Shown piece by piece: positions 2,840 to 40,100 of a stretch of DNA of 64,000 nucleotides. The translations under genes and the position numbers were made by a program. Source of the stretch: Candidatus Omnitrophota bacterium (GTDB taxonomy: Bacteria; Omnitrophota; Gorgyraeia; Zapsychrales; JANLHA01); contig JACKFJ010000002.1 in NCBI GenBank assembly GCA_020632535.1, forward strand, positions 120,245-184,244. Reading direction: 5' to 3'. The notes beneath the pieces were generated by a model. It made no database searches. It saw only the letters and a program-made list of their open reading frames with translations, and was not told the origin of the DNA. Every line of letters begins with the position of its first letter. Positions within the stretch are counted from its first letter, which is position 1.

Positions 2840-5404
2840 TTAAAATGCTGACAATACACTGTTAAGTTGTTTCTCAAGTTCCTTAATCTGATCATCCTTT
2901 TCACGCAAAATCTTTTCTACCATTTCAAGGCGCTCTTGCGAATCTTTAAAACGCGCTTCCATCAACGCATAATCTTCAGGTTTTCCACCTGCAATGGCGT
3001 TCTTTTCACTCAATTGCTTTTTAACCATAGCCAATTGTTCCTTCAAAGCCGCCATTTTTTGATCACTAAGCTTGATATCATAACGACCCAAATATTCAAT
3101 TTGCTCACCAGCCCAAAGCAGTTTTTCCTTAAGACGAGTCACTAACTTATCATGACGCTGTATCCATTGTTGATACATCTCTTCATCTTTATTGCGGGGA
3201 GCTGGTAAATTTTGCGGGTCGATCTCAACCAAAAGCGCGGTATCAGTTTTATCACCACCGCTACTCTGCATGCCAGACAAACGACTTTCTAAATCAGCTA
3301 AAGTCTTTTTAACTTCTTCATATTGATTAATCTTGGCAGTGTAAAGCTCCTCGCTCTTATGCAATTTATTCTCAGTGAAAAGAAGCTGAGCCTGAGCATC
3401 ATTGAGCTCTTTAATTTTCTTCGCCAAAGCTTCTTTCAAAGTCCGCAATTGATCCTGAAGCTCTTCTTCATTTTGAGCTTTTTGAGATTTATAATTGCCG
3501 AACTCTTCTTCAATAGCTTGGATTTTCTTTTCATACTCAAGCTGTCTATCTTTAAAATTATATTGCTTAGAGTGAACATCCGTTTCCATCGCATCAATGC
3601 GAGCCTGTAAATTCATCAATTTTTGGCCTTGTTCCTTAAGTTTAGTACGACGCACTTCCAAATCAGTTTTGGCTTCAACTAAATCCGTTTCTAATACAGC
3701 AACCTTCTGATCCTTCTGCTTACTGCTCTTCTCTAAATCCTGAATCAGAACTTGATCTTTCTGCGACATATCAACAATCTCTGCTAACTTTTTCTTTAAA
3801 ACAATATTTTGTTTTTGAACTGCCTTAACCGCAGGAGAAACAGCTTCTTGCGCCACAAGCATATCCAATGATTCCTCGCTGCCGACATCATCATCTTCAA
3901 TAGCATCAAGCGGCATCTTTTCCACGCGCGAAGCATTTACTTTATAATTTTTACGCACCTGCTTTATTTTTTCTGCTTTTTTCTGCGCAAAACTTTGACG
4001 AAGTTCCTTTTCCTTTAACGCTTGATCTGCTTCAAGCTTTGCTAGCACATCCTCTTCGTCATCATCCGCGTCAATAACGACAGCACTATCTTGCGAATGC
4101 TCATCGACAATATCTTCATATTCCGAATCATCTAACTCAAAATCATCATCATGACTTGCAACTGGCATAACCTTATCCACCACAGATTTTTTAGCAGGAA
4201 TGTCTTTATCAATCTTTTGCATCTTTGGCGCTAATTTTTTATTCTTGGAGGATTCAATGGAAATTTTTCTTAAAGCAATTCTTTGCTTTTGCTCAGCTTT
4301 TTTCTCAATAACTTTTAAACCCGCCTGTTCCTGTTTATCAGCCTGTTTCTTGATATTTTCAATGGCTGCGTTTTCTTTAAGCGTTATAACTTCCTTAATT
4401 CCGTCTCCATCAATATCGACCGGAACCATCTTTTCATTTGGAGCTACTTTTCTTGCACTGAACTTTTTATGAGTGGCCGCAATCTTATCAGCAGTCTGAG
4501 CAGCAATCTCATCCTGTAATCGTGTTTTCGCACCGCGCGCTTCAGTTTGTATTTTAAAAATTGCGGCTTTTTCTTTATCTTGAGCGACTGTATTACTGAC
4601 TTGCGCAACATCTACGGCCGTCGCTGGAGATTGCGTCTTCTTTGATGTTTGTATCTTTTTACTCTTGTCTATTTTTTCTTCTATTTTGGTACTTTTGGGG
4701 GGAGTAACTGCGGATTGCTTTTCCTTATCATAAACTGCCGCGGCTGCTGTGATCTGATTTTCAAAATCATCCATCGATGAATCAAGGGACAAATGGACAT
4801 CGTTATCCTTGTCCATATTTTCGTCGGAAACAACGACTTTACGGTCAATAACTTTCTTAGAATCTTTTGCCTGAGAAGATTTTGCTTTCTTTATCGCAGG
4901 TTTATTTTTAACTGACTTTTCTTTCTTGCTTTGAGCACGAACTTCCTTTAAAGCCGCTTTTTTGTCTTCATCAGCCTGCAATCGCAAAGCTTTCAAAGCT
5001 GCCATTTCTTCCTTCGCAGTTTGCTCTTCTATCGCTTTAATCTTTTGCGCTTCTTCTTTTTTACTGCTTTTGCCAACATCATTTTTAGTTGTTTCAGAGA
5101 CCTCTTTAACTTTTTCTAACACAGGCGTAGGGGTAGCGGCCACCTTCTTATATTGCTCTGTCTTTTGTGTACCACCAAAACCAAGCATGCGTAAATACAT
5201 CAAGGCTTCCTCGTTATTGGGATCAGCTAAGAGTGCCTTGTTAAATTCTCGAATGGCAAGATCGTAATCTTTAACTTTAAAATGTTTTTTACCTGCTTCA
5301 ATATAAAAATTCGCGACGAGATTAGGCTCAGCGGCGTGGCTGCTAGAAGAAAATGTCAGCAGATAAACAATCGAAAGCAATAAAAAGAATGATTTTTTAT
5401 TCAT
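2840..5404 (-). CDS. Secreted/periplasmic TPR-containing, K/E-rich coiled-coil protein (~854 aa from the MNKK start; the ORF track gives an alternative start at 5458)
   Basis: The preferred start is ATG at 5404-5402 with RBS GGGGA 5 nt upstream, giving MNKKSFFLLLSIVYLLTFSSSSHAAEP (signal peptide). A TPR-like motif follows (NFYIEAGKKHFKVKDYDLAIREFNKALLADPNNEEALMYL). Then comes a long K/E/A-rich low-complexity tract and a C-terminal heptad-rich coiled coil (LEKSSKQKDQKVAVLETDLVEAKTDLEVRRTKLKEQGQKLMNLQARIDAMETD...). Confidence 0.8.
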   Translation of the reverse strand: MNKKSFFLLLSIVYLLTFSSSSHAAEPNLVANFYIEAGKKHFKVKDYDLAIREFNKALLADPNNEEALMYLRMLGFGGTQKTEQYKKVAATPTPVLEKVKEVSETTKNDVGKSSKKEEAQKIKAIEEQTAKEEMAALKALRLQADEDKKAALKEVRAQSKKEKSVKNKPAIKKAKSSQAKDSKKVIDRKVVVSDENMDKDNDVHLSLDSSMDDFENQITAAAAVYDKEKQSAVTPPKSTKIEEKIDKSKKIQTSKKTQSPATAVDVAQVSNTVAQDKEKAAIFKIQTEARGAKTRLQDEIAAQTADKIAATHKKFSARKVAPNEKMVPVDIDGDGIKEVITLKENAAIENIKKQADKQEQAGLKVIEKKAEQKQRIALRKISIESSKNKKLAPKMQKIDKDIPAKKSVVDKVMPVASHDDDFELDDSEYEDIVDEHSQDSAVVIDADDDEEDVLAKLEADQALKEKELRQSFAQKKAEKIKQVRKNYKVNASRVEKMPLDAIEDDDVGSEESLDMLVAQEAVSPAVKAVQKQNIVLKKKLAEIVDMSQKDQVLIQDLEKSSKQKDQKVAVLETDLVEAKTDLEVRRTKLKEQGQKLMNLQARIDAMETDVHSKQYNFKDRQLEYEKKIQAIEEEFGNYKSQKAQNEEELQDQLRTLKEALAKKIKELNDAQAQLLFTENKLHKSEELYTAKINQYEEVKKTLADLESRLSGMQSSGGDKTDTALLVEIDPQNLPAPRNKDEEMYQQWIQRHDKLVTRLKEKLLWAGEQIEYLGRYDIKLSDQKMAALKEQLAMVKKQLSEKNAIAGGKPEDYALMEARFKDSQERLEMVEKILREKDDQIKELEKQLNSVLSAF

Positions 5405-5570
5405 AATTTCCCCAATGATGTTTTGGATTATAACATTGTTAAAATGCCACTGCAACAAAGGTTAAAAGTATTTATTGATATAGGTAAAAACTTTTATCCA
5501 CCAAATTTAACTTTTATGTTATAAATATCCATAATTTAAAAACACCCTTATTTCTCTATATATAGCCCTG
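5405..5570. promoter_or_regulatory. Divergent intergenic region likely carrying promoters for mutS (+) and the coiled-coil operon (-)
   Basis: A 166-bp AT-rich spacer between divergent starts. Candidate sigma70-like hexamers on the plus strand: TTGATA at 5476-5481 and a TATAAAT-type -10 at ~5521-5527. Not verified. Confidence 0.3.
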
Positions 5571-8129
5571 ATGACTACTCAAGCATCCACCCCAATGCTC
5601 GCGCAGTACCAAAAAATCAAATCACAATATCAAGACTGCATTCTTTTTTTCCGCCTCGGTGATTTTTATGAAATGTTCTACGATGACGCCAAAAGTGCGG
5701 CCAAAACCCTTGATTTGGTTTTGACAGCCCGCGGTCGCGGGACAATCAACGAAGCACCCATGTGCGGCATACCCTATCATACGGCCAATAGCTATATCGA
5801 CCGTCTTATTAAAGCAGGGCACAAAGTCGCTGTCTGCGAACAGGTTGAGGATCCCGCGGTCGCGGTTGGCATTGTCCGGCGCGATGTCATTCGAGTCATT
5901 TCATCCGGCACTTATCTTGATGAAAATTCTCCTGACTCTCGCTATCTTTGCGCTTTAAGTCCAAATGGAAATACCATTGGCATAGCCTTTACCGATCCGG
6001 TCAGCGGCTCAATTCAGACCAATCAATTCGAAAACACTCATAAAATTATTGAGTTATTAGCACGTCTGCCTATCTACGAATGTGTTTTTCCTGCTAGCGA
6101 AGAAGATAAAATTAAAGAATTGCTCAAACATCCACTTCTCAAAACAAAAATTCTGACGTTAAGTCCGCAGGAAAACTGGTCTTTTAATAGTGATATCGCG
6201 TCCAAAAATCTATGTGAACATTTTGCTGTTTTGAATTTACATGGTTTCGGTCTGGATGGATTGTCAATGGCAGTATCAAGCAGTAATGCGCTCCTTGAGT
6301 ATCTCAAAATCATGAATCGCCAACCGCTTCGTCATATTAATCGTCTCAGTCTCTATACCGACGAGGATTACGTTTATCTTTCACCGGCCGCGCATTATGG
6401 CCTTGAAATCGAAACATTTTTTAAAACCATCAATTGCACATTGACATCCATGGGCAAGCGCCAATTGCGTTCATGGCTTAGCCATCCTTTACGAAAAGTA
6501 GACGCCATCCTTGAACGCCAAAATGCAGTCACGCTTTTACGCAATCATTCCGAAAACTTACGCACACTCAGAGAATGCTTAAGTCCATTGCCTGATTTAG
6601 AAAAGTCCATTTCCAAATTAAGTTCGGGATATACGCAACCCAAGGATTTGCTTTCAGCACGCAACAGCTTGGCTCTTTTGCCAAAAATTCTTGATGCCGT
6701 AGCTCCGCTTGTTACTCAAAATCGACTTTTTTCTGTTGATGACATTCCTTCATTACGAAAGCTTTTAGAAAACGCGATCAATCCCGACATGCCTCTTGCA
6801 AATAATGAAGGCAAGGTGATCAAGCGGGGATTTAATACAGACCTCGATGCTTTGCGAGATATTCAAGAAAATGGACAAGAATGGCTGCGCCGTTATCAAG
6901 CGCAAGAAATCACCCGCTCAAAAATCAATTCTCTTAAAGTCGGTTTTAATAAAGTCTTTGGATATTACATTGAAGTAACAAAGGCTAACGCCAATCTCGT
7001 GCCGGATCACTTTATTCGTAAGCAAACCTTGGTCAATGGCGAACGGTTTATCACGCCGGAATTAAAAGAATATGAAGAAAAGATTTTAACCGCCGAAGAC
7101 AAAATCCGCAAAATTGAAAATGATTTGATTGAGGAATTAAAAAAAACTATCCTTGATCACGCGCCTGCCTTACACAAATTTAGCCAAAGCGCGGCAACAT
7201 TGGATGCATTGTATTCTCTCGCTGTTCTTTCGCAAGAACCCGGTTATGTCGCACCGGAAATTAGTTCTGACAATGTCTTGGATATTCAAGAGGGTCGTCA
7301 TCCTGTCGTCGAAAAAACATCAAACCAGAATTTTATTCCTAACGACACGCACTTGAATTGCCAAGACCAACATTTAATTATCTTAACCGGACCGAACATG
7401 GCCGGAAAATCGACATATATCCGACAAATTGCTTTATTGGTAATGTTGAGTCAAATGGGCAGCTATGTTCCAGCCAAAAGCATGCACGTCGGCGTCGTGG
7501 ATAAAATTTTTACCCGCATAGGCGCGCACGATGACATCACCAAAGGCCAAAGTACGTTTATGGTTGAAATGAGCGAAACTGCGGATATTCTCAATAATTT
7601 AACCCCGCGCAGTTTGGTCATCTTAGATGAAATCGGCCGCGGAACCAGCACGTATGATGGTTTAAGTTTAGCGTGGGCATTGGCCGAGCATTTTCAAAAA
7701 GCAAAAAGCCGCACCCTTTTTGCTACGCATTTTCACGAACTCACAGCATTGGCGAATGAACACAGTGGAGTCAAGAATTACAATGTCGCGGTCAAGGAAT
7801 GGAAAGACGAAATTATCTTTTTACACAAAATTGTCGAAGGCAGTACCGATGACAGTTATGGTATTTATGTCGCAAAACTTGCGGGGGTGCCGCAAAAGGT
7901 TATCGGACGGGCGAAACAAATCCTAGTCGAACTCGAAACGCAAGGAACTTCACAAAAACATCTTATTTCCAAGTCAGCTAACAATGATCAGCTTTCATTA
8001 TTTACCACTAAAATTGATCCGACCTTAGAAGAACTTAAGAATTCGATTGAGAAAATTGATGTGAATCATTTGACTCCGCTCGAAGCTTTGAATAAGATTC
8101 AAGAATTAAAACAGTTGATCAAGGAGTGA
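5571..8129 (+). CDS. mutS: DNA mismatch repair protein MutS
   Basis: 852 aa. The N-terminal mismatch-binding motif matches MutS (TPMLAQYQKIKSQYQDCILFFRLGDFYEMFYDDAKSAAKTLDLVLTARG). Walker A GPNMAGKST at ~7390-7420, then DEIGRGTSTYDG and FATHFHEL. Confidence 0.95.
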   Translation: MTTQASTPMLAQYQKIKSQYQDCILFFRLGDFYEMFYDDAKSAAKTLDLVLTARGRGTINEAPMCGIPYHTANSYIDRLIKAGHKVAVCEQVEDPAVAVGIVRRDVIRVISSGTYLDENSPDSRYLCALSPNGNTIGIAFTDPVSGSIQTNQFENTHKIIELLARLPIYECVFPASEEDKIKELLKHPLLKTKILTLSPQENWSFNSDIASKNLCEHFAVLNLHGFGLDGLSMAVSSSNALLEYLKIMNRQPLRHINRLSLYTDEDYVYLSPAAHYGLEIETFFKTINCTLTSMGKRQLRSWLSHPLRKVDAILERQNAVTLLRNHSENLRTLRECLSPLPDLEKSISKLSSGYTQPKDLLSARNSLALLPKILDAVAPLVTQNRLFSVDDIPSLRKLLENAINPDMPLANNEGKVIKRGFNTDLDALRDIQENGQEWLRRYQAQEITRSKINSLKVGFNKVFGYYIEVTKANANLVPDHFIRKQTLVNGERFITPELKEYEEKILTAEDKIRKIENDLIEELKKTILDHAPALHKFSQSAATLDALYSLAVLSQEPGYVAPEISSDNVLDIQEGRHPVVEKTSNQNFIPNDTHLNCQDQHLIILTGPNMAGKSTYIRQIALLVMLSQMGSYVPAKSMHVGVVDKIFTRIGAHDDITKGQSTFMVEMSETADILNNLTPRSLVILDEIGRGTSTYDGLSLAWALAEHFQKAKSRTLFATHFHELTALANEHSGVKNYNVAVKEWKDEIIFLHKIVEGSTDDSYGIYVAKLAGVPQKVIGRAKQILVELETQGTSQKHLISKSANNDQLSLFTTKIDPTLEELKNSIEKIDVNHLTPLEALNKIQELKQLIKE

Positions 8130-10155: not shown

Positions 10156-13100
10156 TTATCCTTCCCGAACTGTTACCAAAAAAGCCACAATAATCAAAGC
10201 GACAAAATTATCAGTATAATCCCCTTCGGGACTCGAATGAATATTGGAAAACGAAGTTGATCCGACACGGCCAAGATTCTCTCGAAAACTTAATAACCAC
10301 GCTCGCAATTGTGCCCCCATCGCATTAAATGGTCTAATTTTCCAATACCGAATAATAATATAAACAATATATTGAATTTTAATATACGAAATAATCTTTA
10401 TTCGTCTTGGATCTTTAGCGCCTTGCATAGCACTGATTTGAGGAACATTGCTCAAACTCAAAACATACGTAATCAATGACCGCGCCGATAAAATCAAGCG
10501 TGAATAATATTCACGAATACGCGCGCTCAACAATAATAAAGAATTCCCTAACCACCCTCCAAAGTTTGATGTTGCGACACCTTGTATTTTTTCTGATCCT
10601 CCTGACGAAAAATGAGCAAAATCAAATGCTTGCTCACCAGCAACTTGCTGCGAAAGTTTCTGAACAGCCAATGTCAAAATAGAAAAACTTCTTAAACCAA
10701 CTCCATCAACAATCACATTCATTTTATAAACCAAATCACCGACCACGAAAAAGACATTGCCTTGACTCAAAACAAATCGAATTGGCACATAATATCGTCT
10801 CTCTTTATCCAGCTTGACTTCACGACCACGCGGCAGAACCGGCCAACGACTCCAATACAACCTTTCTGAAATTTGCTGACGTTTAACCCTAGTCATTACC
10901 ATTACTAAAGTACTTTGATCAAATGCTTTGTTTATATTATTTCTTGCTTGATCACCAATAACCGTCGAACTAGCCGAGTTATTATCTTGCCCATTCTTAC
11001 CATTGCCGTTCTTTCCATGCCCATTCTTACCATTACGGATCATATCCATCAAACCATTGCGCTTGCCGTTCTTAACGAATTCCATCGCATCATAAAAATC
11101 ATCCGTATGAACTTTGATCTCAAGATCATCAGTCATTCTGCGGCTTAACTTTAGATAAACAACCGCATAAAGAATCGCCAATTGACTGATGTCATCTAAT
11201 TTAGAAAAACTATCGTGCATTAAAATATCACCTGAGTCAGACAATACAATGACTTGTCCTCGAGTTGGATAAGGTGTTTGTGTTATTAAAATATTAAGAC
11301 GTTGCGGCAATGTCCCGTTGAATAAAAACGAATGATTAACAATTTTAGATACCTGATTAAGCTGTTTGGTGATGCCAAGCAAATCGAATTCTACGCTTAC
11401 CCACTGTCCATCGCGACGCTCGAGTGTCAGTTGCTCACTCGAATTCACAAAAACGCTACGCTGTGGCAATCGATTAGCCTTAAACTCCGTATTATTCGGC
11501 TCTCGATTTTCTTTATACCAACCATACAAAACATCCATGAAATCAATTTCGTCAATTGCTTCCATATTCTTACGACCATAAATGATATCGTGGTCTCCAT
11601 CAATTTCGACAAATAACGATCCAGTCAAATCCGCAAATCTTCTATTCGTCCGCGATGGTGTCGTTGGATCATCTTTGCCGACGACAACCCAAGAATTCAC
11701 TTTTCTTACATTCCCCACAATTTCGGCCAACTCCTCCTGCGAAAATCGAATTGAAGTAAAAAGCCAAGCTGTTTCAAGCTGTTGCGTAATATCATTTTCT
11801 TCGGTTGATGAAGCTTGAATCAATTTGTTGTAATAATTATTTGATAATCCGCTTGCCAACAATATTCTCTTCATCGAATGATTATGTGTAGCCATCTGAA
11901 AGATAAGCAAAGCGCCCCAACGTAAATTTGCTGAAAACACTGTTGCGACACGAAACAGCCAATTGATAAATGGTGGAACTGTTAGTAAATCCTCATAAGT
12001 CATCGACGTGAATAATATCGCTTGAACGTGTTCATCAACAGCTCCCCAAACCGCAGGATAACCATGAACTTGTAAAATACGATCCGTCTCTGTCCTTAAA
12101 AAGCTACGCAAAACAATCATTGTCGCAAGTGAATGCGGGACAAGATAAACTTTTTTTGCGGTCACGGTACTGTAAAACTGTATTAGCCACAACAAGAAGA
12201 ACTGCCGACGAAGAATTGGATCCGTTTGCCCAGCAAATTTTTTCAGAAATTCAATATCTTCCACGCTAAGTTTACGTTGACCGATTCTAGGCTCTTGCCC
12301 TTTCGTTAAGCTTAGAATTGTTTCTGCGGTAAACCATTGTTGCGGGATAACAATCGTATCGTTTGGATGCGCCTGTTTTAATTCGGCAAGACTAAAACTT
12401 TGATTTGCAGAAAGACCATGCAAGAAAATCAGAACATTGCCATTATGATCTCCTTCGCTAACTTCAACGACATGTTCAGGAACAATTTCCGCGTCTTGAT
12501 AATGCCGATGCAGTGATGCTCCAGCTTTTTCAACCATAAACTCCATTCGCTGCAAGAATAAATTAATCCATGTCAAGATCGCGATAAGGATGCTTCCCGC
12601 GATGACAAATGAAATAATACCATGCGTAAAATGAGCCAATAAAGGAAACATAACAACAATGGCAATTGTAATATTTACGGTTGTGATCAATGACAATAAC
12701 GATGCGGAATAAATACCACGCTCCTCATTAATGTCCAACGCAATCCATCCCAAAAGAACGGCCGTCAATACCGTCCCAACAAAGGATATGAGTCCACCGA
12801 ACAACGGCCATAACAAACCACCAACGAAAAATGGTATACCACGATAAAACAATTCCTGACGAAAAGCGGCTGGAGTTTGTGCCACAAACCACTCCACAGT
12901 ACGCGAAATCGCCTTATAAAGTTTCTTTTCTTTATTTAGTGATGATTCTCGAATTTCTTTCCAGAATGACAAACCCGAAATAATTTTACCGTAATTTTGC
13001 AAAATCATAACAGGAACAAACGTGATAAATAAAAACACAGAAACACCTGCCAAAATCAAAACAGACCGCCAGCGAGGAGTACGATTGGATACAGAATCTG

Positions 13101-16100
13101 TTGATAAATTAACAGCGGCTTCTTTTTTAGTTTGTGATTTTATTTTAGATAGCTTTCGAATCGCAGGAATATACTGCAAAGCATTGAAAATCGCGTGACT
13201 AAAAGCATTAGGGAGAATTAGTAAATAAACGGGAGAATAAATCACCTTTTGCAGCAGAGTAATGGGCTCTTGAGATATTTTGGACAATGAAATTTTCCAA
13301 CCCGACCAGAGCGCATAGGCACCAATCATATGCACTTCTAAAAGATAATTGCCATGCAGCCATATCCACGAAGAGATCAGCGGAGACAACATCATTCCCG
13401 CCCACACAAACCCAATACCAAATCCTTGACGGACTTTTTGACGCTTAAGTTCTGGAGTAAAATCCGTGACTCTTTCAAAATGACGATTCAAAAAGCGATT
13501 CGGACGAAACGTCTCAAAGAATTCAATAACCGGCGCGTAAAAAACTTCAATCATCCAATTTTGAGGTACGTAAATTAAAAACGTCTCGCGTAAATATTTG
13601 CGGCCAGCTTCATACGTCGCAGGCAAAATTAATGCCGACGAGGCGCGAAAATTATTCTTTTCTCTTAACCATTGCGAGTAAGCTGGCCAAACTCCTTTGA
13701 GCGATTCATCAGACGTGACCAAAGCAAAATGATTCGCTTTCGCCGCTAAGAAAACTTTGACTTCCTTTCCTGCGATACGCTCAAGACCCATGGTCGAAAC
13801 TGGCGGAACCACAACATCATCACCACCCATAAAAACGGCAAGACGAATATCTTTTAATTTTTCGGCAAGAACCTTTGCGCCATCTCTCATCAAATAATTT
13901 TGCTTAAAAATACGTCTGGCAAATTGTGCAATCGCATCCGTCGCCAAATTCGGCGTAATCCACACCCACTGTCTAAACTTGACTCCAATAATAAATTTCG
14001 TTAATTCATCTCTAAATTGCTTAACCCCTGCCCTCAATGCTTCATCTTTTAATCCTTTTGATAAATCCAAGTTCTTATAAACAAACAGTCTCACCTGCAA
14101 CGATTCCCTCGCAGATAAATATCGTTTTACCGTTTTTTTCCCATTAATAACATCGTTTAAAATCTTTATTTGCGCAGGCAAATCATTCATGCTTTGTCTG
14201 ATAAATTCATGAATTTCTGGATTTTGCATCATCGCGTCCATGATCTGCGCGAAGGGACCCGCCGTCATACTTTCAAAATCTTTAATGCCATTAGCAATTA
14301 ATAAAAACTCCTCAAATTCACGACCACCAATGAGTCCTCCCGGATTCGTGGAAGCAATTGCTTCCACCATACCAATCATCAATTCATTCATCGCTAAAGG
14401 TCGCGCGTCAGCATTTAAGAAATCTGCTAAATCTGAATGAACATTTTTATAAGCCACAAGCTTTGGCGCAATATTCTCAAGATGTGTATCCACCGGAGCC
14501 GCTAACATTGTGATTGACGCAATCACTTCCGGGTTTAAATCCGTCATAGCTAATGCCAATAAGAACAAAGCGCCACCCTGCGAATAACCAATAACATTGA
14601 CTGGTCCTAACTGCGCAGCAGCTTCAATTTCTTCTTTAATCCAACGTGAATAATCTACCAAAGAATAATTACGTCGAGCTTCTTGCCAATACATGACATC
14701 TAATGAATTACCTTCAGCAATTAAAACTTTTATAACACTCATGTCTAAATAAGGAATGAGATCAATGATATGCGGCGCCTTCCAGAAAAACGGAATAAAG
14801 AATACCCGAGACTGCGATACACCCTTTGCCTCATAATGACGCATTTCATAAGGCCGATCCTGTCTTTCTGATTTCTGACTCGGAGCCGTTTCCACTTGCG
14901 GAAAACTGTCTAATCCCTGACCAAAACTATAAGCCGCCGCCCATTGAATAATATTATCAATCGTGTTATCTAACGTCATTCCACGACGAAATGCTTCTCG
15001 CAAAATATTATCAATTGCCGATTTAAACTTATCTTCCACTTGCGCAATCGTCACTTGCAATTGCTCCGTTCCAGATTGATTCAAATTATCCATAATATCT
15101 CTCGCGTTCGAGAATGGATCACGAAACGCCATACCCAACAAAGCCTGCGATAAAATCTGAGCTTTTTTAAGAGCACTTTGCAATGTATTCTCTTTTCGCA
15201 TCAGAACAGGAATAATCTGTGTCATAAATGTAGCAACCAAGTCTTTGATTTTGTCTTCAGATTGCGCGACCAAGAATTCGGTTCTACGATTCTCATTCTT
15301 AGCCTGTGATCGTCCCGCCAATGCGCCAAGAATATAAACCAAATTGGCAGCTAAATCACTTTGATCTTCAGCATATTCTTCAGACAACACAATATATTCT
15401 GACTCCCCATCTTTAATTTGATAAATTGTTGGCACTATCAAAAAGTCATTGAAAGTTCCCATGCGAATATGATCGGAATATATAATTTTTCTAAAAACTT
15501 TGGCTAATTCAGAATCGTGATGCTCCAGCCAATACAACGCCACATCAATAGCCTTATGTGTTATCTGACTCTTAACGCGGCCAAGTCCCCCCTGACTCTC
15601 AATCACAAAACGCAAAGCATACATTGCGCGCGCGTACTGTTCGCTATGTTTTTGCGCAAACTTCAAAACACTTAGGACAATATCAATAACCAGTTGATTT
15701 GCCTCTCGACTTTGCGAATGTGTAAGAAAATAAACCAAATTTCCACCCGCTTCTTGTTCTTCTTCAATCATTTTCAAAACATCAAATGCAATAAATTCTG
15801 GATGTGACAAGATCCACGAAACACCTAAACTGTTATCTTTATTACCCAAAGACAAGATTTTTCTCAAAACCTGAACGACAACAGCGCGGTCATTAATTTT
15901 ATGCAATTTATAAAAATTACCAGCCCAATCAAGGCCATCATGGTCAATCATATTACGCGCGACACGGTAAAGTTCTTCAACCGCTTGTGAATCCGCAATC
16001 GACGATGAAGCAGATAAGCGACGTTCTTGCGGATACGGATGAATGTCCATAATCTTGCCTACTTTAATAGCATCAATGACCCTTTGCCAATATTGTGCAT

Positions 16101-19100
16101 GAAACAATTCACCATGTGCTCGCTTAAATTCAGAAACATGCTCCTGCGAAACATACCAAGAGGTCAAAATAATGTTTTCAAACTGCTCAGGAAAGAAATC
16201 GTACGGCCTAACCGTTACTCTCTCGCCAAGAGGTTTCATTTCATCATCATCATTACGCGCAGGTGGAATCTTTCGTGGATTCCAGAGAGCGATAGGGTCT
16301 AAATCATCGTAATCATATAAAACAACCCGACCAGTAGATGTAACACCATAATTTTTAGGAAAGAAATCACCTGCAAATAATCCAATACCAATAATTTCCT
16401 TAAGAGCTTGACCATAGTCATCAACTGTCCTGCGAAGTAATTCCGTGTCTATCGTTTCTTTTAAAAAAGTATCTAGCGGTGTAATCTTTAATTGAATAAA
16501 AAGATCTTTAATAATAATCGTCTCTCCATCGATAATTATAGAATCTGGAGCTCTTTGCTTTAATTCTTCAAGCACTTCTGGTGTAAAATCGGCCGTCGCA
16601 AATCGAACATTGGCATAAATCATCGCATCAAGAAGCCTTCCCGCACGATCCATTTCATGGACTAATTGATACTTTGTTTTAACCATTGCCTTCCCGCCTC
16701 GTATATCATAATCTTCTTTCTCAGAATGATCAGCGGCAACTTTTAGAACATATGGAAAATCATTGTTAAGAGTAAACGTGACCATCACCTTCCCCTTGGT
16801 TCCCTTTGCGAAGACAAATTTGCGCTCTGGATGAGTTAATTCCTCTGCCATAGATATTGTAATTTCAACCTTAGCCGGATAAACAAGCCCAATAGCGGCC
16901 AAGAGAAAAGCTCTATCCTTACCACCGGCGATCGTTTCAATAAACTGAATGATCTCTCGATAGTGCTGAATATCAACCATAAAATTCGCGCGTGTTGAAG
17001 CAAATAAAATACCACTGACATCATTATGGTTCATGAGTAAAGCATCAACGACAATACCAGTTTTGCCTTCTGGATGCGTTAGCGCAAAAACAAGTGGTAT
17101 CGTTTGTCCTTGAGAAATGATTCGACCCATCAGATAAGCTCTTTTGTTACGATAAAAAATTGGATTTAACATCTCAATCATATCGTATCGACGAATATTA
17201 TATTTAGCCATTTCTTGCTCAATGCGCTCTTGACTAAGTCGAATATCGCGATCTAAATCTTCAAACGGAACATTAAAATGAACCCTCATAAAGATTTGGC
17301 GAAGGACACTTTCTACCGAGATTTGATCATGATCACCCGAACTTAACAGGTACGATGTATATGGCTGATTTTGCAATGTGTATTGGATAGGAGTATCTTT
17401 ATGAAGACGTTCATCTTGATATTCGACGGGAATTCCCTTGTGAAGAAAAACACGACGAAAAGCCGAATCAAAGAATTGCATTCCAATATCATCGTCGTAA
17501 TCTTGCCGCAAGCGCTTTTCATAACGAATACGAAGATCTGCCCAAACTGCTGGGTCATCCATCTGTTTACCAAAAATCTTACCAATCTTCTGAACAACAA
17601 TCGTTACGGCTTGCGAACGAGATTTATTTCGATTTCTTTGTTCTCTCTGCATACGATTCCAATCACGAGTTTCAAAAGCCTTCTTGGCAACACGATGAGC
17701 ATTCTTGAAAGCACGAAATGAAGAACGAAATTCCTTATGAATGATACGGGCACTGCGATTCACCATTTCTTCATACATCCGTTCTTTAAAAACTGCCGAT
17801 GAGGAACTCAACACAGCTGTAATTAAGAATCCGCTCTTTCCTTCCAAAATTCTAATATCATCGAAAGCATACTCTCGTAACATATCATTAAAAGTCCAAC
17901 CCAAAAGATGAGCTCTTCCCGCATAAACAACCCCTGCCAATTTCGGCAAAACAATAATTATCCGACCAGAATTCTTTAAAATCCATGAAGCCTGCTTAAT
18001 AACTTGCGCTAAAATGTCAACATAGAAAATTATACCGTTATCGTCAGGCCCTGCTCCACGAGAGATTAAAGTCTTCCCAAAATCTGTCTGCATTGTGTTT
18101 TTATCAACAACTATATGATGCAATGACCTATTAAAAACAACTAAATCCATGGAGTGTTCCTCTAGCACTTTGCTTAAAGCGGTTGCATCGCCATACACAT
18201 GTGTTATTTTCTCTACGACTACTATCTGGTCACTTGCAAATAAATCCAACATTGTCATCCTATGCATGCCGCCAAGAAGTAAACCTTGTGCTGGAGCCGA
18301 ATTAGAAGCTGAACCCACATCAACCCCATTTCCTTGAAGCGAATAAAAAGCCGCTAATGTCTCAAACAACAATACGTCTTTATCATGATCCAAATAATCG
18401 ACAATTCTTTCCTCAATTGCTGACGAGGCCAAATTTCCTTTTCGTATTGCCTCGATACGTGCGTATAACTCAAATGCCGCCGCATTATCAGTAACTTCAT
18501 GAATCTTTACTTTGCCGTCGGGCATTATCACAACAATATACTCGTATGGCTCAACACTAATGCGGGGGAAAAGAAGATACGTAGTCTCTTTATTATCACG
18601 ATCCAGCCCCATACTTCTTCCCAGTTTCAAGAAAAAGAACCGTGGCAGAGAGGAGCCTTTAATCACAATCGTTAAAATATTTCTCTTAATCTGTGTTGTA
18701 AAGTTTTCAACGGCTTCCACAGCTTCATAATCAAAAATCTGAATCGGATTTGTTTCCTTAGGCTCAGCGAGATTGGTGTCGCGCAAATCGATATTACTTT
18801 CAAAACGCACTTTAATGCGCAATTCATTAGCCTTACGTCTGACAAAACGTTCAATCAATGTTGAACGCACTACAAAATCTTTAAGCCCGCCGGGTAAAAG
18901 CAATGGCGCGTTCTCAAGAATGACAATCTTCCCACCAATTTGTCGAGCAAATTTAATTAATAATGGGGCGTCATATGCTTGACGCAACTCTGCGGCTAAT
19001 CGCACAAAAAGGTCTTGGTTATTATCATTATAAAAAGCAATCCCCACGCCATCACCTTGGCGTGTCTCAACAATCTCGCCTGTTTTTTGATCAATAACCA

Positions 19101-22100
19101 AAAGATCAGTATTAATTCTGGGATCATCCAAAGTATTTTGCTCTTTCGAAGATCGATCAACACTGAGCGTCATTTGCTTTTCATTACCTGTCTGAGGATT
19201 AACAGTCGCGAGATATCCAAAATAATCATCATTAATAAATTCACGAACAATAATCGAAGGATAAAATCGACTGGCATCAAATTGATGCCGCTGAGCGCTA
19301 TGCGCCCAATCTTTAATTCTCACCATCAAGTCCACCCACTCATCGTCAAAGTGGCGTATCCATGCTTTTTGAACCATTTCAATAATATTATCGGCGGTAG
19401 CAATTTCCGGCAGCGTTCTTTCACCAAATAAGCGCTGATCCGCCATAGAAGATAATTTCACGATCGCTGTTTTATTACCTAAGGTTTCACGATAAGCCTG
19501 TTTGATCTTTGCTTTAAATTTATCAGACAGTGTAAGCCGTCGAACTTCATCCTGAACACGACTAAACTTATTAGGAAGCTTGTCATTAAGAATATCCCCG
19601 ATAGCTTGATCAAACTCAGCAAATCTTTCCCTCCTGAAAATATTTCTTAAGACAACAAAACCAGCAGGAATTGCAACATCATAACCTTGTTCACGAAGCC
19701 TGAGAGCAACTCGATGGATCATCGCTAACCCATAGGCATTTACACCCGCAATATGTGGATCTTTAATACTTAACTCATCGAGACGAACCACATCCGCGGA
19801 CGTATCCAAACTCCGTACAAGTTTTGAATAATATTCAATCAAAACACGATCATCATCTAATCGAAATCTGCGACTTGCCGAAATTATCGATTCAATAACA
19901 AATCCGATATTCTCCTCTTCAAATGTCGAAAGTTTTAATCGTTTACGGATGACTTCTAGTCGTTCAATAATTCTTTGTGTTGTTTGAAAACGTTTTTTAG
20001 ATTTAATGACTTCAGTAAATTGCAATTCTTTCAAATCAAGCGTCGTAAGATCATAAGCGAATCCCGTGAAGTATCTTCTCTCCGCAGGAGTCGCCCTTTC
20101 AATAATTCGACGTTGTGTTATTTGCAGCCAGACAATAAAGTCTTGATATGCTTTCTGTACCTCGTCCTTCTTTCGCGTCGCCCTAATAGCCCTAAGGGCA
20201 TTATGAAGACGAATAGTTGCTACCACTTCTAGACGCTTATGAACTGTCTGCTTGCGATGCGCAATAAGATCTTCGTCGCTCTCTTGATAAAAATGCCCTA
20301 ACTCCTCAATATAATCTTCCATAGACTTTTCATATTGCACAGCCATATGCTTAATCATGTCAAGCTCATGAGATAACCAATACCGGATAAAACGAATCTG
20401 CCACCATGAATCTTGCGCCTCTTCATCAAGTCTTTCGTAAGCTTCATCAAATCGCTCTGCGACAGCAGCATTAATATCAAAATTTTTCGGTGAATAAATA
20501 CCCTTTAAGCGAGTGTCGATAATTATCTCTTGTCCATCATTCAAAAGACCGTAACCTTCTTCCGTAACCGTCGCCCAAGCAAGTCCCAAAAACGCGCTGC
20601 GACTGACCGTATTACCAGTTTGCGTAATCAATCCGCGAATTCCTGTCTTAAACAAATTACGAAACTCATTGATCGAAAGCTCTTTAGCAACAACAACTTT
20701 ATCTTTGTATGCCGCCACATCACCATTACCATTTGTCCAAACCTTAATCGGACCATAAGCAAAACCATGCGATAAAGTTTCAACAGAAACAATAGCCGAC
20801 GAAGCAGACGTGCCGTTTTGTGTAATCTCATCGACAAGATGGGTGACAATCATATTGCTATCAGCCTTCTTAGAAAAATTCACAATACATTCATGAATCG
20901 CCGCTGCTTCTTGAGTCGTGAGTAAATTTTCTTCGCTAAAAAGATCCCAAATCTTACGAACTTCGTCCCATTTCCAATGACGTGACTGCGCTCTATTCCC
21001 GGTAGGTTGAAAAACAATCGCTTCCGCAATCGGTCGCGCGATAAAGTTGGACTTGCGTAATAAATCCCCTTCCATCCGTGTTTTAAAACCAAACATGAAT
21101 AAATACATCAAGCGGGATAAATCATCGCGACGCTTTAATAATTCATCAATCAATTTTTTATCCAAACTATTTTCCATACTCAAATCAACGATCGCCGCGT
21201 AAATAAGCTTACCAAACCATCCTTTGGACAATTGATCACGTAATTGCTGGCTAAGTTCCTTATTTTCGTCATGAAGTTGTTTTTGTGCTGCAACCATACG
21301 CTCTTGCATGACATGCAAATCAAACAATAGCGGCAACCCAACGACAAGAGCCTGTTCTTCGGTAAACCAATCTAAATAATCTTCTACTTTAGTAACAAGT
21401 GCTGCGATCAACTCTTGCTCGACTTTGATCGAAGCAAAATCACTCTTCTCTAAAGTAATACTTTCTAATTCGGCAATTTCTCTTTGCAAACCTGCCAAGA
21501 TTTCGGCCTGCAATTGATCAACACGCGCTTGAAGCATGACTTCTAAACGATCACCACGACTGTCTTGATTGCCATATTCCTCTAACTGAGCGAATTGGAC
21601 TTCCAACTGTTTAATCAATACATACAAAGCGTCCAAACTTGCAACAGCGGTTATTTGGCCGACGAGTTGATCAAATTCATTTTCTAAAGCGATGATGTGC
21701 GAACGATCTTGTACATTTGATAATTGTTCTAATAAAATCTTTCCTTGTGCTAAATCATCAGCGGTCAATCCTAATTGAGCGCGCTTCTTATCCGCCTTTT
21801 GTGCATCTTGAATTGACAAAATATCGTCTAAAAGCTCATGACCACGTTTAGCATCACTTTGTCCAGCCAACCACGCCTGAACACGACCACGATATTCTTC
21901 TTGAATCACCTTTCTTAAAGAAGCCTTTTTATAAATTCGCTCATCCTGCACTAACTTCACTAAAAATGCTGTTTCAACTTTTTCAAATCTTCCTGCTAAA
22001 GCCTCCGCAGCCGCAACAAACAAGTCATTATCCTGAGCGGCTAATAAAGATTCGAGTCTTTGCGTAATTTGAGCTGATTGACTATTAGCCACCATTAACT

Positions 22101-37100: not shown

Positions 37101-40100
37101 CATAAACTTCTTTCATGGCAACACTATCCTCATATCTCATGACCCACGGCGAAGCATCCAATTTACCACCATGAATCAATTGCTTGGCTTCATTCACAAC
37201 GGCCGCGATAGCAAAACCTGCACGCGGCAAGGCATGTTCTTTAATCGGGCTAGAACTTTGATTCTGACTCATATCATCATCCTGACCCATTTGTTTTTGT
37301 ACCGCTTCAATTGTGTTATTTAACTGCCACTTTGTCTCAACTTGTTGCGGCGAAACTAATGAATAAAAACCACTCCCATTCCATCGTTTTTGCTTATATG
37401 TGCTTTGTAAAATATGATTCAATACCGGTCGCGCGTCGCGACCATTAGAACCCATAAGTCCAATCACCTTAACAAGCCGTTCTTGCGCCTGATAGGAATG
37501 TTCATTCTGTAATTCAGCAATAATAAGAGATAAAGCAATCGAGCCGTTGAGAGCAAGAGCACGGCTTAACCAAGCGCGTTCAATTTCGGAAGATTCCGCA
37601 CGAAGGAAGAATGCTAACACTGCTTTTTGTACATCCTCATTACCTGATGCTAAAACTTTAGAAACATTGCGCAAGAGATCTTCTTGCCACAAAATATCTT
37701 GTGTTTCTTTTAATGTGTTAACTGAATAATTAGTATCTTGAATCTCGCTCCTAATTGAATCTATTTCCTTCATGAATTGAATTTGTTCTCTGACTTCAAT
37801 AATTCTGCTGTAATGTTGTAAAGTTTTTAGCAAAAATTCTGTCTGGTTCTGTAGCGCAACACTCTCTAGAGATTTAGCCCCTAATATACTCGCGATAATT
37901 GCAAAAAGTTCTTGTCCCGGATGCAAGTAAGATTCACTAACACTTGTAGACGCGACAGTGTCAATACTCAGATTCTTATTTGCGGCAAAAATGCCAGTAG
38001 CGTTTGGTTTTATTTCTGGCGCAGGTTGTGGATGAGGCTGTTGATCAAACTGTGGCTTAGGCTGCTTTGGTTGTGGAACAGGTTGATTCTCCAGCTTTTC
38101 GAGTTCATTTTCAAAATGCTTAATCCAGAGAGGAAGATCTTTCTTAATTTGAGGATATTTCACGGCAAGTCCTACACTATTTAAAATAGTACCCAAAACA
38201 CGCAATGTTTCAATAACTATAATCTGGAGCCTTTGATTTTGTTCCTGAGTTTCAAATTGAAGCTGCGCGCTAAAATAATCATAAAAGAACTGCTCAAGCG
38301 CGAAAACTATGTCTGCCATCAAATGCGCGTCACTTCTCACGGCTTCACTATGAATGAAAATAACGCCACGCGGCTGACCAAGAAATCCATCTGAAACATA
38401 CAATGAATGATTCAACACCGAAGGATGCTCAAGCGGCAAATTAAATAATAGTCGCAAGTTATTGCGTATAGCAACTTGAAATCTTGAACTCAACACAATC
38501 TCACGTTCAACAGGGTTAAGATTTACAACGATAATTTGAAATAATTTGACAAGTCTTCTTGGATCAACAACAACTGTTTTATTTTCATCGATCGTGGAAT
38601 CTTTCGCGGCAAAACCAATAATAGCACCAAGAAAATCTCGTCGCGTAATCGCGCTGGAAGCGACAGGATATTGTGCAATAGCAGAATTCGCGTCAATTGT
38701 AATTTTGCTGACTTCAACCTGACCCGAGACAAATACCTGATAACGCAAAGGCTCTGTCTTTGTTGCATCGCGCCAAAAGACAAGAACCCGATCTCCGTCG
38801 ACTTGAATATTAATTTTATTGGACAAAGTAACAGCACTAGGTTCATCCCAACGATGATTTCTTAAAACCGCAGCCGGCCTAATAAGGCGCACCGTACTAT
38901 CCACTTTATTAATTTCAAATTCGGCGGACCACAATCCATCTTCTTCCCAAATACGAATATCAAACGCTCCATGCCGCAACCAATCAAATTGTGTAAACAA
39001 ACCACTTTGCTGGTCATTCTTGTATCTGGAATCGATGCTATATACTGCATTTGGAGCAATATATTTATAAACCATCCGCATCAAACCATAATTTCTTGTA
39101 TTGTGTATTTCAACCATCGAAAATGAATTTTGCCGTGCAAAATTAACTAAATATGCAAATATCGTACGACCCATGCCCTGTAAATTATAACTATAAGAAG
39201 TCGCACTAAAAGCAATATAAAGTACGTCAATTTGATCTTCTACAAGACTCAACACCAGATTGCTGTCTGTAATCACGTTCCCATTAAGCCAGAGGCCAAA
39301 ACTTACTTCCTGTGAATCATCCTTTTTATAAACAGCATCCAGATTCTGTTTAAGAGTAAATGGCTGGCCATTAACAATGTTAACCAATTTAATTTTTTGC
39401 GGTAGAATGTCTTCGTGCCAATTTCGCTGAATCGGAGATGAAGCACGAGTCTTACCTTGTTTGTCTTCAACCACCTTAATCATGATACGTTCAAAATTTG
39501 AACGAATTAATCCACGAGCCGCAATTTTATTAGCATTAATATCACCCTCGTAAGAAATATACGAAACACCGACTCTCTCAGCTAACCCCTTGAGTAACCA
39601 TTGCGCTACGACCAACCGACCCGTCGACTTCCAAGTTTCACCCCCCAATAGACGCTCAACCCGGCCTAAAATCATTTCATGAGATGGAAAAGCCGTAGCA
39701 TAATTTACTGCCTGCCCCCAGATTGAAATTCCACTGCCAAAAAGCATATAAAAATTTGTATTAGTTTCTCCCTCATGATTAAACCAGACGTCAAAGGTGC
39801 GAACGCCATAAACTCCAAATTCATTTAATTTTTCGCTTAAAAATTGACCCTCAGAAGTCTGTTCAAGATTAAGTTCAACTGAACTCATTAAAGGATTCTT
39901 TGTAATTACAAAAATATCGATATCTTCGCCATAAGGCATTTGCGTCTCAGCTGGATAACTTGACCAAAATTCAACTAAACTGCCACCAATCGTGATATTT
40001 TGAATTTCAATATCTTGGAAATGCCGCTGCAAAATAATTGGTAAATATTCTTGTAAAATGATAAGAACGTGTAGCAAATGATTTCTTTTAATCTCATGAA

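Follow-up and report, generated by a model that had tools for sequence, protein, structure and literature searches.

Results

An AceK Module within a Giant Open Reading Frame

The stretch of DNA analyzed here, 64,000 nucleotides (nt) of contig JACKFJ010000002.1 from a Candidatus Omnitrophota bacterium (hereafter, the window), is occupied over 53.8 kb of its reverse strand by a single open reading frame (ORF), and within this giant ORF lies a full-length relative of AceK, the isocitrate dehydrogenase kinase/phosphatase (Table 1). The predicted product comprises at least 17,932 amino acids (aa), a figure that represents a minimum, as the 5' end has no bounding stop codon inside the window; no stop and no start is found among the 15 in-frame codons that can be read upstream of the ATG, and the gene may therefore begin beyond the window. 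No internal stop codon interrupts the frame along its 53.8 kb (the other two frames of the same strand contain 1,047 and 1,739 stops), and the window contains no N and has a uniform base composition throughout. The MutS protein encoded in the window is 100% identical to the MutS of a Candidatus Omnitrophica bacterium metagenome-assembled genome (MAG), located on a contig of 451 kb, and those of the next best MutS matches (≤83% identity) that carry a source name all belong to the Omnitrophota.

In Pfam searches, the giant ORF presents itself as a mosaic of GT5 and GT1, RelA_SpoT with ACT, several HTH, LOG/SLOG, TPR, AceK and alpha/beta hydrolase domains, with weak matches to a Pol-beta nucleotidyltransferase and a methyltransferase, and approximately 70% of its length is left unannotated. 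No Pfam match to SecA-DEAD, C39 peptidase, S8 peptidase, dockerin or TSP3 was obtained over the entire ORF at E ≤ 0.01. A Kyte-Doolittle scan, which is a crude method, detects approximately 28 hydrophobic segments of 19 residues with a transmembrane-like profile, clustered at aa 1781-3794, 5915-6714, 12530-12570 and 16967-17130. Cysteine is almost absent from the product, with two occurrences (aa 4562 and aa 14356) in 17,932 residues, compared to approximately 1% in the adjacent MutS and MutL.

The two Pfam families that make up AceK, PF20423 and PF06315, are both matched from end to end, with scores far above their gathering scores, and a 700-aa slice of the ORF around them matched no other Pfam family. 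A phmmer search against Protein Data Bank (PDB) sequences identified Escherichia coli AceK (E 5.4e-68), with chain residues 12-571 aligned. A first-pass annotation of the window had already proposed a full-length AceK-like domain at 16020-17720, to be checked with these two profiles and against the catalytic Asp and ATP-binding loop of E. coli AceK. The proposal is confirmed by the full-length profile matches, by the E. coli alignment and by the presence of both the catalytic Asp (D457, here D15863) and the loop; the four peptides on which it was based all occur in the giant-ORF frame (Table 1), and the proposed interval covers nearly the whole module, leaving out some 30 nt at its 5' side.

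An alignment of the window module with E. coli AceK, 64 stand-alone AceKs and 20 copies embedded in longer proteins was used to examine individual residues (E. coli numbering). The window copy retains all 11 active-site residues checked (G317, G320, V322, M323, K336, D457, K461, N462, D475, Y476 and D477), among which the four positions of the ATP-binding loop, G317, G320, V322 and M323, are invariant in the stand-alone proteins. The roles of AceK residues in ATP binding and phosphotransfer, including those of K336, K461 and the D457/N462/D475 triad, have been described previously (PMC3747045; for K336, also PMC9138534), as have the phosphatase roles of the metal ligands D477 and E478 (PMC6591243), of which the former is kept and the latter conservatively replaced by Asp in the window copy. 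The substrate recognition loop of AceK (E. coli residues 484-510) docks into the isocitrate dehydrogenase dimer (PMC9138534). The region encompassing this loop (474-520) has a canonical length in the window copy (48 residues vs. 47) and preserves R488, I490, P491, P492, R494, D498, E499, V508 and P510 in the loop, as well as D512, F514, P515, E516 and F518 in its flanks.

Structure prediction leads to the same assignment. The fold of AceK pairs a unique regulatory domain with a eukaryotic-like kinase domain, and an allosteric pocket for AMP lies between the two. An AlphaFold2 model of aa 15360-16010 (mean predicted local distance difference test [pLDDT] score 72; predicted template modeling score [pTM] 0.72) matches the E. 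coli AceK structures 3LCB, 3EPS and 6K5L in a Foldseek search of the PDB, with E-values down to 1e-38 and target-normalised template modeling (TM) scores of 0.84-0.89 over ~595 columns. E. coli AceK chains are included in the top 10, and the next matches are ordinary protein kinases with TM scores of at most 0.40. The sequence and the model hence lend good support to a predicted chemistry of ATP-dependent protein Ser kinase/phosphatase of the AceK type and, as an enzyme, the module is a new, divergent member of the known AceK family. Degenerate embedded copies that have lost catalytic residues do exist in other long proteins (P0146_e1, P0264_e1 and P0267_e1, the P0146 one being the first of two tandem copies), and the window module could in principle likewise be in decay, an inactive remnant or pseudo-enzyme that a mosaic ORF carries with it. 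With all 11 active-site residues and a full-length predicted fold retained, in a frame that remains open across 53.8 kb, this appears very improbable.

A Recurrent Motif at the Edges of the AceK Module

The giant ORF contains 25 instances of the motif [AS]SS[ASP], distributed between aa 3743 and aa 16775 and followed by I, L or V in all but two cases (23/25). Residue shuffling yields an expectation of 1.5 sites for the loose pattern and of 0.48 for the strict five-residue pattern, compared to the 25 and 23 sites observed. None of the sites falls within a Pfam envelope of the giant ORF, no site is found in five neighboring proteins of the window, and the motif is missing from the first 3,742 residues, which constitute the transmembrane-rich N-terminal part, and from the last 1,157 residues. 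The Ser codons of the motif switch between TCN and AGY and its Ala codons differ among sites, indicating that conservation operates at the protein level and making a DNA-level cause, such as a recombination site or an RNA signal, unlikely.

The 25 sites partition the ORF into approximately 24 cassettes, one of which corresponds to AceK. The AceK module is flanked by a motif at both edges (Table 1), a configuration with a probability of ~5e-4 under random placement. Counted from the first residue of one motif to the first residue of the next, the AceK cassette measures 598 aa, matching the size of free AceK (median of 607 aa in 62 complete stand-alone genes), and it contains no cysteine, compared to a mean of 4.5 in stand-alone AceKs.

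AceK in Other Genomes and Long ORFs

When 1.84 billion cluster representatives were searched exhaustively with HMMER, 1,176 AceK relatives were recovered at E ≤ 0.001. The closest match to the window module shows 38% identity, revealing that the giant protein itself is absent from the library. Among the best 150 matches, 18 are proteins of 1,000-6,037 aa in which AceK is internal, and the window is not the only place where AceK lies within a very long ORF. A scan of species-representative genomes with a kinase-domain alignment identified 109 relatives, in MAGs labeled as Acidobacteriota, Chloroflexota, Zixibacteria, Ignavibacteria, Myxococcota, Bacteroidota, Verrucomicrobiota, Planctomycetota, Omnitrophota, Elusimicrobia and others; a scan of the genome collection using a single AceK module as the query returned no relative. 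Stand-alone AceKs are spread over many phyla in the former scan. The characterization of AceK in the first-pass annotation as rare and taxonomically restricted therefore stands for its rarity, given 1,176 relatives among 1.84 billion representatives, and goes too far for its restriction, given 109 relatives in many phyla.

The best match to the window kinase domain (49% identity) is L006, from the Planctomycetales MAG CAZOXU010000003.1, the ORF of which, at least 5,240 aa long, contains two AceK modules in tandem. Such tandem pairs are also present in P0130 and P0146.

The long AceK-carrying proteins are cysteine-poor (0-0.66%) and frequently, though not universally, display a motif of their own at the edges of AceK. 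GARL[AS] occurs 11 times in P0142, with sites 796 and 1380 bracketing AceK (799-1371), and [GA]ARL[AS] occurs eight times in P0145, where sites 81 and 689 bracket AceK (92-683), and eight times in P0276, where site 4638 lies just past AceK (4057-4625). In P0133, nine AMLA / D[KR]AM sites include one at 396, just ahead of AceK (399-959), and the AMLA motif is also found in L038, from the same contig of a Planctomycetales MAG. P0135 carries five RSELR sites, two of which (421 and 433) precede AceK (444-1015). In a 4,822-aa ORF of a Planctomycetia MAG (L084) with five GARL[AS] sites, the nearest ones (2018 and 2899) flank AceK (2056-2632) more loosely. Lastly, in a cysteine-free protein of 2,121 aa from an Omnitrophota MAG (L036), the only two instances of AKDGA[SG]R, at 1330 and 1915, bracket AceK (1334-1903).

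The partners of AceK in these proteins include acyl-CoA-synthetase-like, histidine phosphatase, HD, PGM and methyltransferase domains. In P0171, a 4,875-aa metagenomic protein (JGI), AceK (994-1627), malate synthase (1668-2305) and isocitrate lyase (2364-2892) are consecutive, and the whole aceBAK set is thus contained in one polypeptide. The same protein, whose source name is 'isocitrate lyase', also carries an aldo-keto reductase.

Syntenic Relatives and Cassette Turnover

Relatives of the locus were reached through MutS orthologs (~82% identity) in two independent assemblies, GCA_964474085.1 (L002) and GCA_031423615.1 (L004). The genes flanking the giant ORF (mutS, mutL and envelope proteins) are conserved in these relatives, each of which carries, after mutS-mutL and in the same orientation, a giant gene (at least 11,205 aa and 18,727 aa, respectively). 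The last ~2,700 residues of both giant genes show 15-25% overall identity with the window ORF and contain 4-6 cysteines, and each of them presents four sites of the same motif, against an expectation of 0.1. The extreme C-terminus (last ~75 aa) is common to the three giant genes (Table 1), following the pattern 'KDPxRxxxISYxKIxY...RxWKxRP...SxPExDY', which leads into a hydrophobic helix and the end of the protein. By eye, this tail has the look of a sorting or anchoring signal; a PEP-CTERM/PEF-CTERM-like signal was considered and rejected after obtaining no NCBIfam match at E ≤ 10.

The relatives also bear on whether the giant ORF exists at all. The window derives from a MAG and its giant protein has no counterpart in a library of 1.84 billion proteins, where the best match reaches 38% identity, so that a chimeric assembly, or the merging of several genes through a deviant genetic code, might be suspected. 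The absence of in-frame stops of any kind over 53.8 kb leaves no stop reassignment to be invoked, however, the sequence is free of N and uniform in composition, and L002 and L004 independently exhibit giant ORFs at the same locus after mutS-mutL, which share the motif and a conserved C-terminus. An artefactual origin of the giant ORF can hence scarcely be credited.

Comparison with these relatives, and of the window ORF with itself, indicates that segments delimited by motifs move and duplicate. The RelA/SpoT-ACT cassette (aa 9491-10313 in the window) is also found in L002 with 33% identity; it is located mid-protein in the window and directly before the C-terminal tail in L002, with motifs at both ends in both cases. 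Within the window ORF, two cassettes of 260 and 261 aa, with 46% identity, align end to end and have motif sites as their edges (Table 1); furthermore, aa 10970-11171 and 11201-11402, within HTH-rich cassettes, are 72% identical over 202 aa. No AceK is present in the last ~2,700 residues of the L002 and L004 giant genes, and an L004 match to window aa 15935-16127, considered as a possible AceK, was rejected because it corresponds to the next cassette. The L004 homolog of that post-AceK cassette starts at 'ASSGL', aligned with the ASSSI motif of the window, and is preceded by non-AceK sequence. The relocated RelA/SpoT-ACT unit, the AceK-less boundary in L004 and the motif-to-motif duplicate together imply that motif-to-motif units act as evolutionary units. 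AceK is present in the window lineage and missing at the corresponding place of its closest available relatives, which share the motif, and the AceK cassette has therefore been gained or lost as a unit.

Adjoining Cassettes, Neighboring Genes and Other Features

The cassettes next to AceK are described in Table 1. PDB sequence searches with the three cassettes around AceK returned a single weak match, to PEP synthase, and nothing else; the 208-aa cassette directly upstream had no match. If correctly assigned, the PEP-synthase-like cassette would represent another central-carbon branch-point enzyme. In the last cassette, the peptides 'QELFYRG' and 'SHAIFN' had suggested by eye a CPBP/CAAX-type intramembrane protease, which is not supported, as no Pfam match was obtained even at E ≤ 1. 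Toward the other end of the giant ORF, a stretch rich in glycine, in which polar and hydrophobic residues alternate (e.g., GVGFKYGELDLNVGLRRTPFGKNALTLGASKTLENGMTVGAGMG), has the appearance, by eye, of outer-membrane beta-barrel strands, with no Pfam match.

The mutL gene, on the forward strand, ends at 10153 and the giant ORF, convergent with it, at 10156; their stop codons are separated by two bases, too few for each gene to have a terminator of its own. L002 and L004 are arranged likewise, with gaps of 3-6 nt. Upstream of mutS, the window encodes a cysteine-free protein of 872 aa that has a hydrophobic segment at its N-terminus, a single TPR-like stretch and a long coiled coil rich in Lys and Glu (weak SMC match), and its position is kept in relatives, together with DUF6580 and a TonB-dependent receptor.

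Table 1. Features of the giant ORF, its AceK cassette and their surroundings (window coordinates unless another contig is named).
Feature	Position (nt)	Strand	Residues, basis and remarks
Giant ORF	10156-63954	(-)	At least 17,932 aa; 53.8 kb; ORF list
Motif-punctuated part of giant ORF	13630-52728	(-)	25 sites, ~24 cassettes delimited
Motif sites, first nt of 15-nt site, part 1	52714, 52663, 52141, 51337, 47836, 46366, 46309, 44857, 41914, 41068, 41047, 40267, 39430	(-)	
Motif sites, first nt of 15-nt site, part 2	38647, 37243, 35470, 33001, 30412, 28495, 24280, 20791, 18415, 17791, 15997, 13630	(-)	
AceK cassette, motif to motif	15997-17805	(-)	aa 15384-15986; motif sites
Upstream motif SSSAV	17791-17805	(-)	aa 15384-15388; starts 18 residues, ends 14, before AceK Pfam start
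AceK regulatory domain	16831-17751	(-)	aa 15402-15708; PF20423, E 1.4e-60, profile 1-300/302
Peptide FETRDW	17659-17676	(-)	aa 15427
Peptide FFDSAFRRVF	17446-17475	(-)	aa 15494
AceK kinase/phosphatase domain	16027-16821	(-)	aa 15712-15976; PF06315, E 1.1e-70, profile 2-256/256
ATP-binding loop AKGTKGKVM	16783-16809	(-)	aa 15716-15724; equivalent to E. coli A315-M323; alignment
Strand YVLKVAAD with ATP-site lysine	16729-16752	(-)	K15738, equivalent to K336; alignment
Catalytic loop GDFFPKN	16351-16371	(-)	D15863, K15867, N15868, equivalent to D457, K461, N462
Peptide KNYGVTSTGRVVLYDYDDL	16300-16356	(-)	aa 15867
Metal-binding loop YDYDD	16303-16317	(-)	Equivalents of D475, Y476, D477; E478 replaced by D
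Substrate-recognition-loop equivalent	16204-16287	(-)	E. coli 484-510 region; alignment
Peptide FPEQF	16180-16194	(-)	aa 15921; next to recognition-loop equivalent
Downstream motif ASSSI	15997-16011	(-)	aa 15982-15986; starts 6 residues past AceK Pfam end
Second cassette upstream of AceK	18430-20805	(-)	aa 14384-15175; weak PEP-synthase/PPDK-like (PDB 8a8e, E 0.003; PEP-utilizers PF00391, E 0.15)
Cassette directly upstream of AceK	17806-18429	(-)	aa 15176-15383, 208 aa; weak Methyltransf_11, E 0.01
Cassette directly downstream of AceK	13645-16011	(-)	aa 15982-16770; Abhydrolase_1, E 2e-8
Duplicate cassette, first copy	40282-41061	(-)	aa 7632-7891
Duplicate cassette, second copy	38662-39444	(-)	aa 8171-8431
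Conserved C-terminus, window	10159-10390	(-)	
Conserved C-terminus, L002	L002:14431-14660	(-)	
Conserved C-terminus, L004	L004:9298-9520	(-)	
Glycine-rich stretch	~62500-63000	(-)	aa ~330-480
872-aa cysteine-free protein	2840-5458	(-)	

Discussion

An AceK Cassette in a Giant Protein

The results presented here point to the segment 15997-17805 (-) as a complete AceK-family kinase/phosphatase that constitutes a self-contained cassette of a membrane-associated, almost cysteine-free giant protein of the Omnitrophota, from which it might be released by cleavage. A probability of roughly 0.7 may be assigned to this reading, and several observations weigh against it. On the one hand, some of the evidence concerning the borders and affiliation of the cassette is qualified. 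Residues 1-25 of the AlphaFold2 model have pLDDT values below 50, with the first helix at model residue 25, just past the upstream motif, and confidence falls below 50 again from one residue after the start of the downstream motif, but low confidence outside the motifs is weak evidence, as it is expected from an alignment that spans AceK only. Similarly, it is a neighbor-joining tree (572 columns) without support values that separates the window module from the E. coli-type clade and places it with almost all of the embedded copies and with a few proteins that stand alone, and no obvious punctuation motif is seen in L006, L007, L044, L060 and P0171. On the other hand, the function and the release of the cassette face objections of their own. 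Within the recognition loop, F487 (98% conserved) is replaced by P and W505 (75% conserved) by R, making a different substrate possible; Pfam searches detect no icd, aceA or aceB in the giant ORF or elsewhere in the 64-kb window; and no protease domain is recognized by Pfam or NCBIfam in the giant ORF or its flanks.

Substrate and Site of Action

In E. coli, AceK phosphorylates and dephosphorylates isocitrate dehydrogenase at Ser113. The window cassette would use ATP to phosphorylate, and would also dephosphorylate, a serine of an isocitrate-dehydrogenase-like substrate, gating in this manner the flux of isocitrate. Such a substrate is suggested by the intact active site, by the largely canonical recognition loop and by the fusion of AceK with malate synthase and isocitrate lyase in P0171. 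A phmmer search with the P0171 modules found no aceA or aceB cassettes in the giant ORF, and among the long proteins only P0171 has them. The association with aceB and aceA is typical of enterobacterial aceK and does not strictly define the family.

A different reading of the same evidence is that the cassette is a repurposed AceK-fold kinase, deployed as an effector that is exported with the giant protein, or cut from it, and that works inside, or upon, a host or prey cell, where it might phosphorylate, for instance, a host dehydrogenase or an unrelated protein instead of the bacterium's own isocitrate dehydrogenase. Extreme cysteine depletion is typical of exported proteins, and here it affects both the giant ORF and the AceK cassette. 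The two substitutions in the recognition loop also favor an effector, as does the lack of the cassette in the corresponding region of close relatives, which makes it seem dispensable, and the nature of nearby cassettes as regulators of central metabolism (glycogen synthase, RelA/SpoT, LOG and the PEP-synthase-like unit). Furthermore, the giant ORFs of the Omnitrophota have been tied to attachment and predation (PMC10066038; West-Roberts et al., 2023). AceK needs ATP, however, and an effector of this kind must reach a cytoplasm, for which no delivery mechanism is evident; the remainder of the recognition loop is canonical, P0171 links embedded AceK to its canonical shunt partners, and a 2026 preprint interprets nearly half of such giant proteins as anchored, the greater part of each lying at the cytoplasmic face (bioRxiv 10.64898/2026.06.07.730766). 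An effector role is thus regarded as unlikely, and an isocitrate-dehydrogenase-like substrate remains the reading favored here.

Possible Release or Tethering of Cassettes

The motif may mark places where the chain is processed or, at a minimum, joints exposed to a lineage-specific protease, which could free the cassettes there. Being defined at the protein level, specific to each lineage, kept amid divergence and located at the borders of units, it seems to behave like a recognition site that co-evolves with its reader. These features allow a broader model to be put forward, tentatively and with odds that fall short of even. In this model, the giant ORFs of the Omnitrophota and of related members of the Planctomycetes-Verrucomicrobia-Chlamydiae (PVC) group would be polyproteins, the equivalent of operons expressed as one chain, cut at lineage-specific five-residue motifs (ASSA[IL], GARLA, AMLA and others) by a co-evolving protease to release cysteine-free enzymes of ordinary size, with the motifs serving as the points where cassettes are gained, lost, duplicated and shuffled. 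The purge of cysteines would fit a chain, or pieces thereof, that is exported or stays unfolded during translocation. AceK, glycogen synthase and RelA/SpoT need nucleotides and must therefore work in some cytoplasm, be it that of the producer or that of a host.

The cassettes might also never separate, with the motif serving as a short inter-domain joint, for linkage or docking, and AceK remaining tethered in a membrane-anchored multi-enzyme scaffold. The failure to detect a protease in the ORF and its flanks agrees with this possibility, a membrane-anchored tiling of multiple enzymes has been proposed for such proteins (bioRxiv 10.64898/2026.06.07.730766), and peptides of the giant protein of V. 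archaeovorus have been reported along the whole chain, without evidence of fragments. Passive linkers, however, rarely keep five residues while their surroundings fall to 15-33% identity, and the use of a different motif by each lineage is what would be expected if the site co-evolved with a recognizing protein. Permanent tethering is hence considered somewhat doubtful.

Implications

AceK is the textbook example of protein phosphorylation in bacteria and usually regulates the glyoxylate bypass as a small protein on its own, whereas here an intact AceK is found as one cassette of a protein ~30 times its size. The phylum in question comprises bacteria of ultra-small size that probably depend on hosts; their giant genes rank with the largest known and lack an established function. 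The occurrence of the motif at the borders of AceK and of other cassettes provides explicit candidate processing sites in Omnitrophota giant proteins, and it offers a rational means of splitting giant ORFs into units for structure prediction and expression. Since a known assay exists for AceK, it constitutes a convenient first cassette for asking whether the pieces are active enzymes.

Comparison with Known Systems

The window module resembles E. coli AceK (3EPS, 3LCB, 3LC6, 6K5L, 4P69) in having both domains at full length, the ATP loop, K336, D457, K461, N462, D475, D477 and the DYD metal loop, as well as in the length of the recognition loop and in its predicted fold (TM 0.84-0.89). It departs from the E. 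coli enzyme in overall sequence (27-30% identity), in lacking cysteines (none, compared to eight in E. coli residues 12-571), in the F487P, W505R and E478D replacements and in not being adjoined by aceB and aceA. Moreover, it forms residues 15384-15986 of a giant ORF instead of a gene by itself, and it falls with other embedded copies in a separate deep clade. A fused counterpart of the aceBAK operon of the glyoxylate shunt is P0171, in which AceK lies directly beside malate synthase and isocitrate lyase; the window ORF differs from both in having neither of these enzymes, its AceK neighboring instead a methyltransferase-like and an alpha/beta hydrolase cassette.

Viral polyproteins carry short protease recognition sites at domain junctions, as illustrated by the Ala-X-Ala-Ala site of birnavirus VP4. 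The motifs described here share with these sites a small-residue A-x-x-A shape (ASSA, ARLA, AMLA) at the borders of independently folding units, and they are likewise lineage-specific and kept while their flanks drift. Unlike viral polyproteins, the giant ORF resides on a cellular chromosome and is syntenic in relatives, and its processing sites are putative. A further parallel can be drawn with the polyvalent proteins of phages and conjugative elements, reportedly described by Iyer, Burroughs and Aravind in 2017, with which the giant ORF has in common the stringing of unrelated enzyme modules in one very long polypeptide and their rapid shuffling between relatives. It differs from them in the lack of a phage or conjugation context in the window and in a repertoire that is metabolic and regulatory, not anti-restriction.

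Also comparable are the giant ORFs of the Omnitrophota themselves. Members of this phylum commonly have ORFs that exceed 20 kb and whose function is obscure (PMC10066038). They have been described as an 'Archaeovorin' type, in which glycosyl transferases, methyltransferases and transmembrane helices abound (West-Roberts et al. 2023, bioRxiv 10.1101/2023.11.21.568195), a work in which the question of whether giant proteins are cut is raised and their cleavage points are stated to be unknown, and as members of a class named 'multi-enzyme metabolic cluster', in which starch synthase (PF08323), GT1, PGM, GNAT, HD and methyltransferase domains tile the chain (bioRxiv 10.64898/2026.06.07.730766). 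The window ORF is like them in belonging to the same phylum, in far exceeding 20 kb and in its many transmembrane-like segments and divergent, mostly unannotated enzyme tiles, and it shares with the multi-enzyme class starch synthase (PF08323), GT1, methyltransferase-like and HD-like units, none of which dominates. It is unlike both types in that no SecA-DEAD, C39, S8, dockerin or TSP3 domain is detected. AceK, isocitrate, cysteine depletion and a boundary motif go unmentioned in the main texts of both works, and PF06315, PF20423 and AceK have no match in one supplement of the 2026 preprint. An AceK cassette that is fenced by a lineage-specific motif within a near-cysteine-free giant ORF, and that is gained or lost as a unit, hence represents a new arrangement with respect to those described in the texts of the Archaeovorin and multi-enzyme papers.

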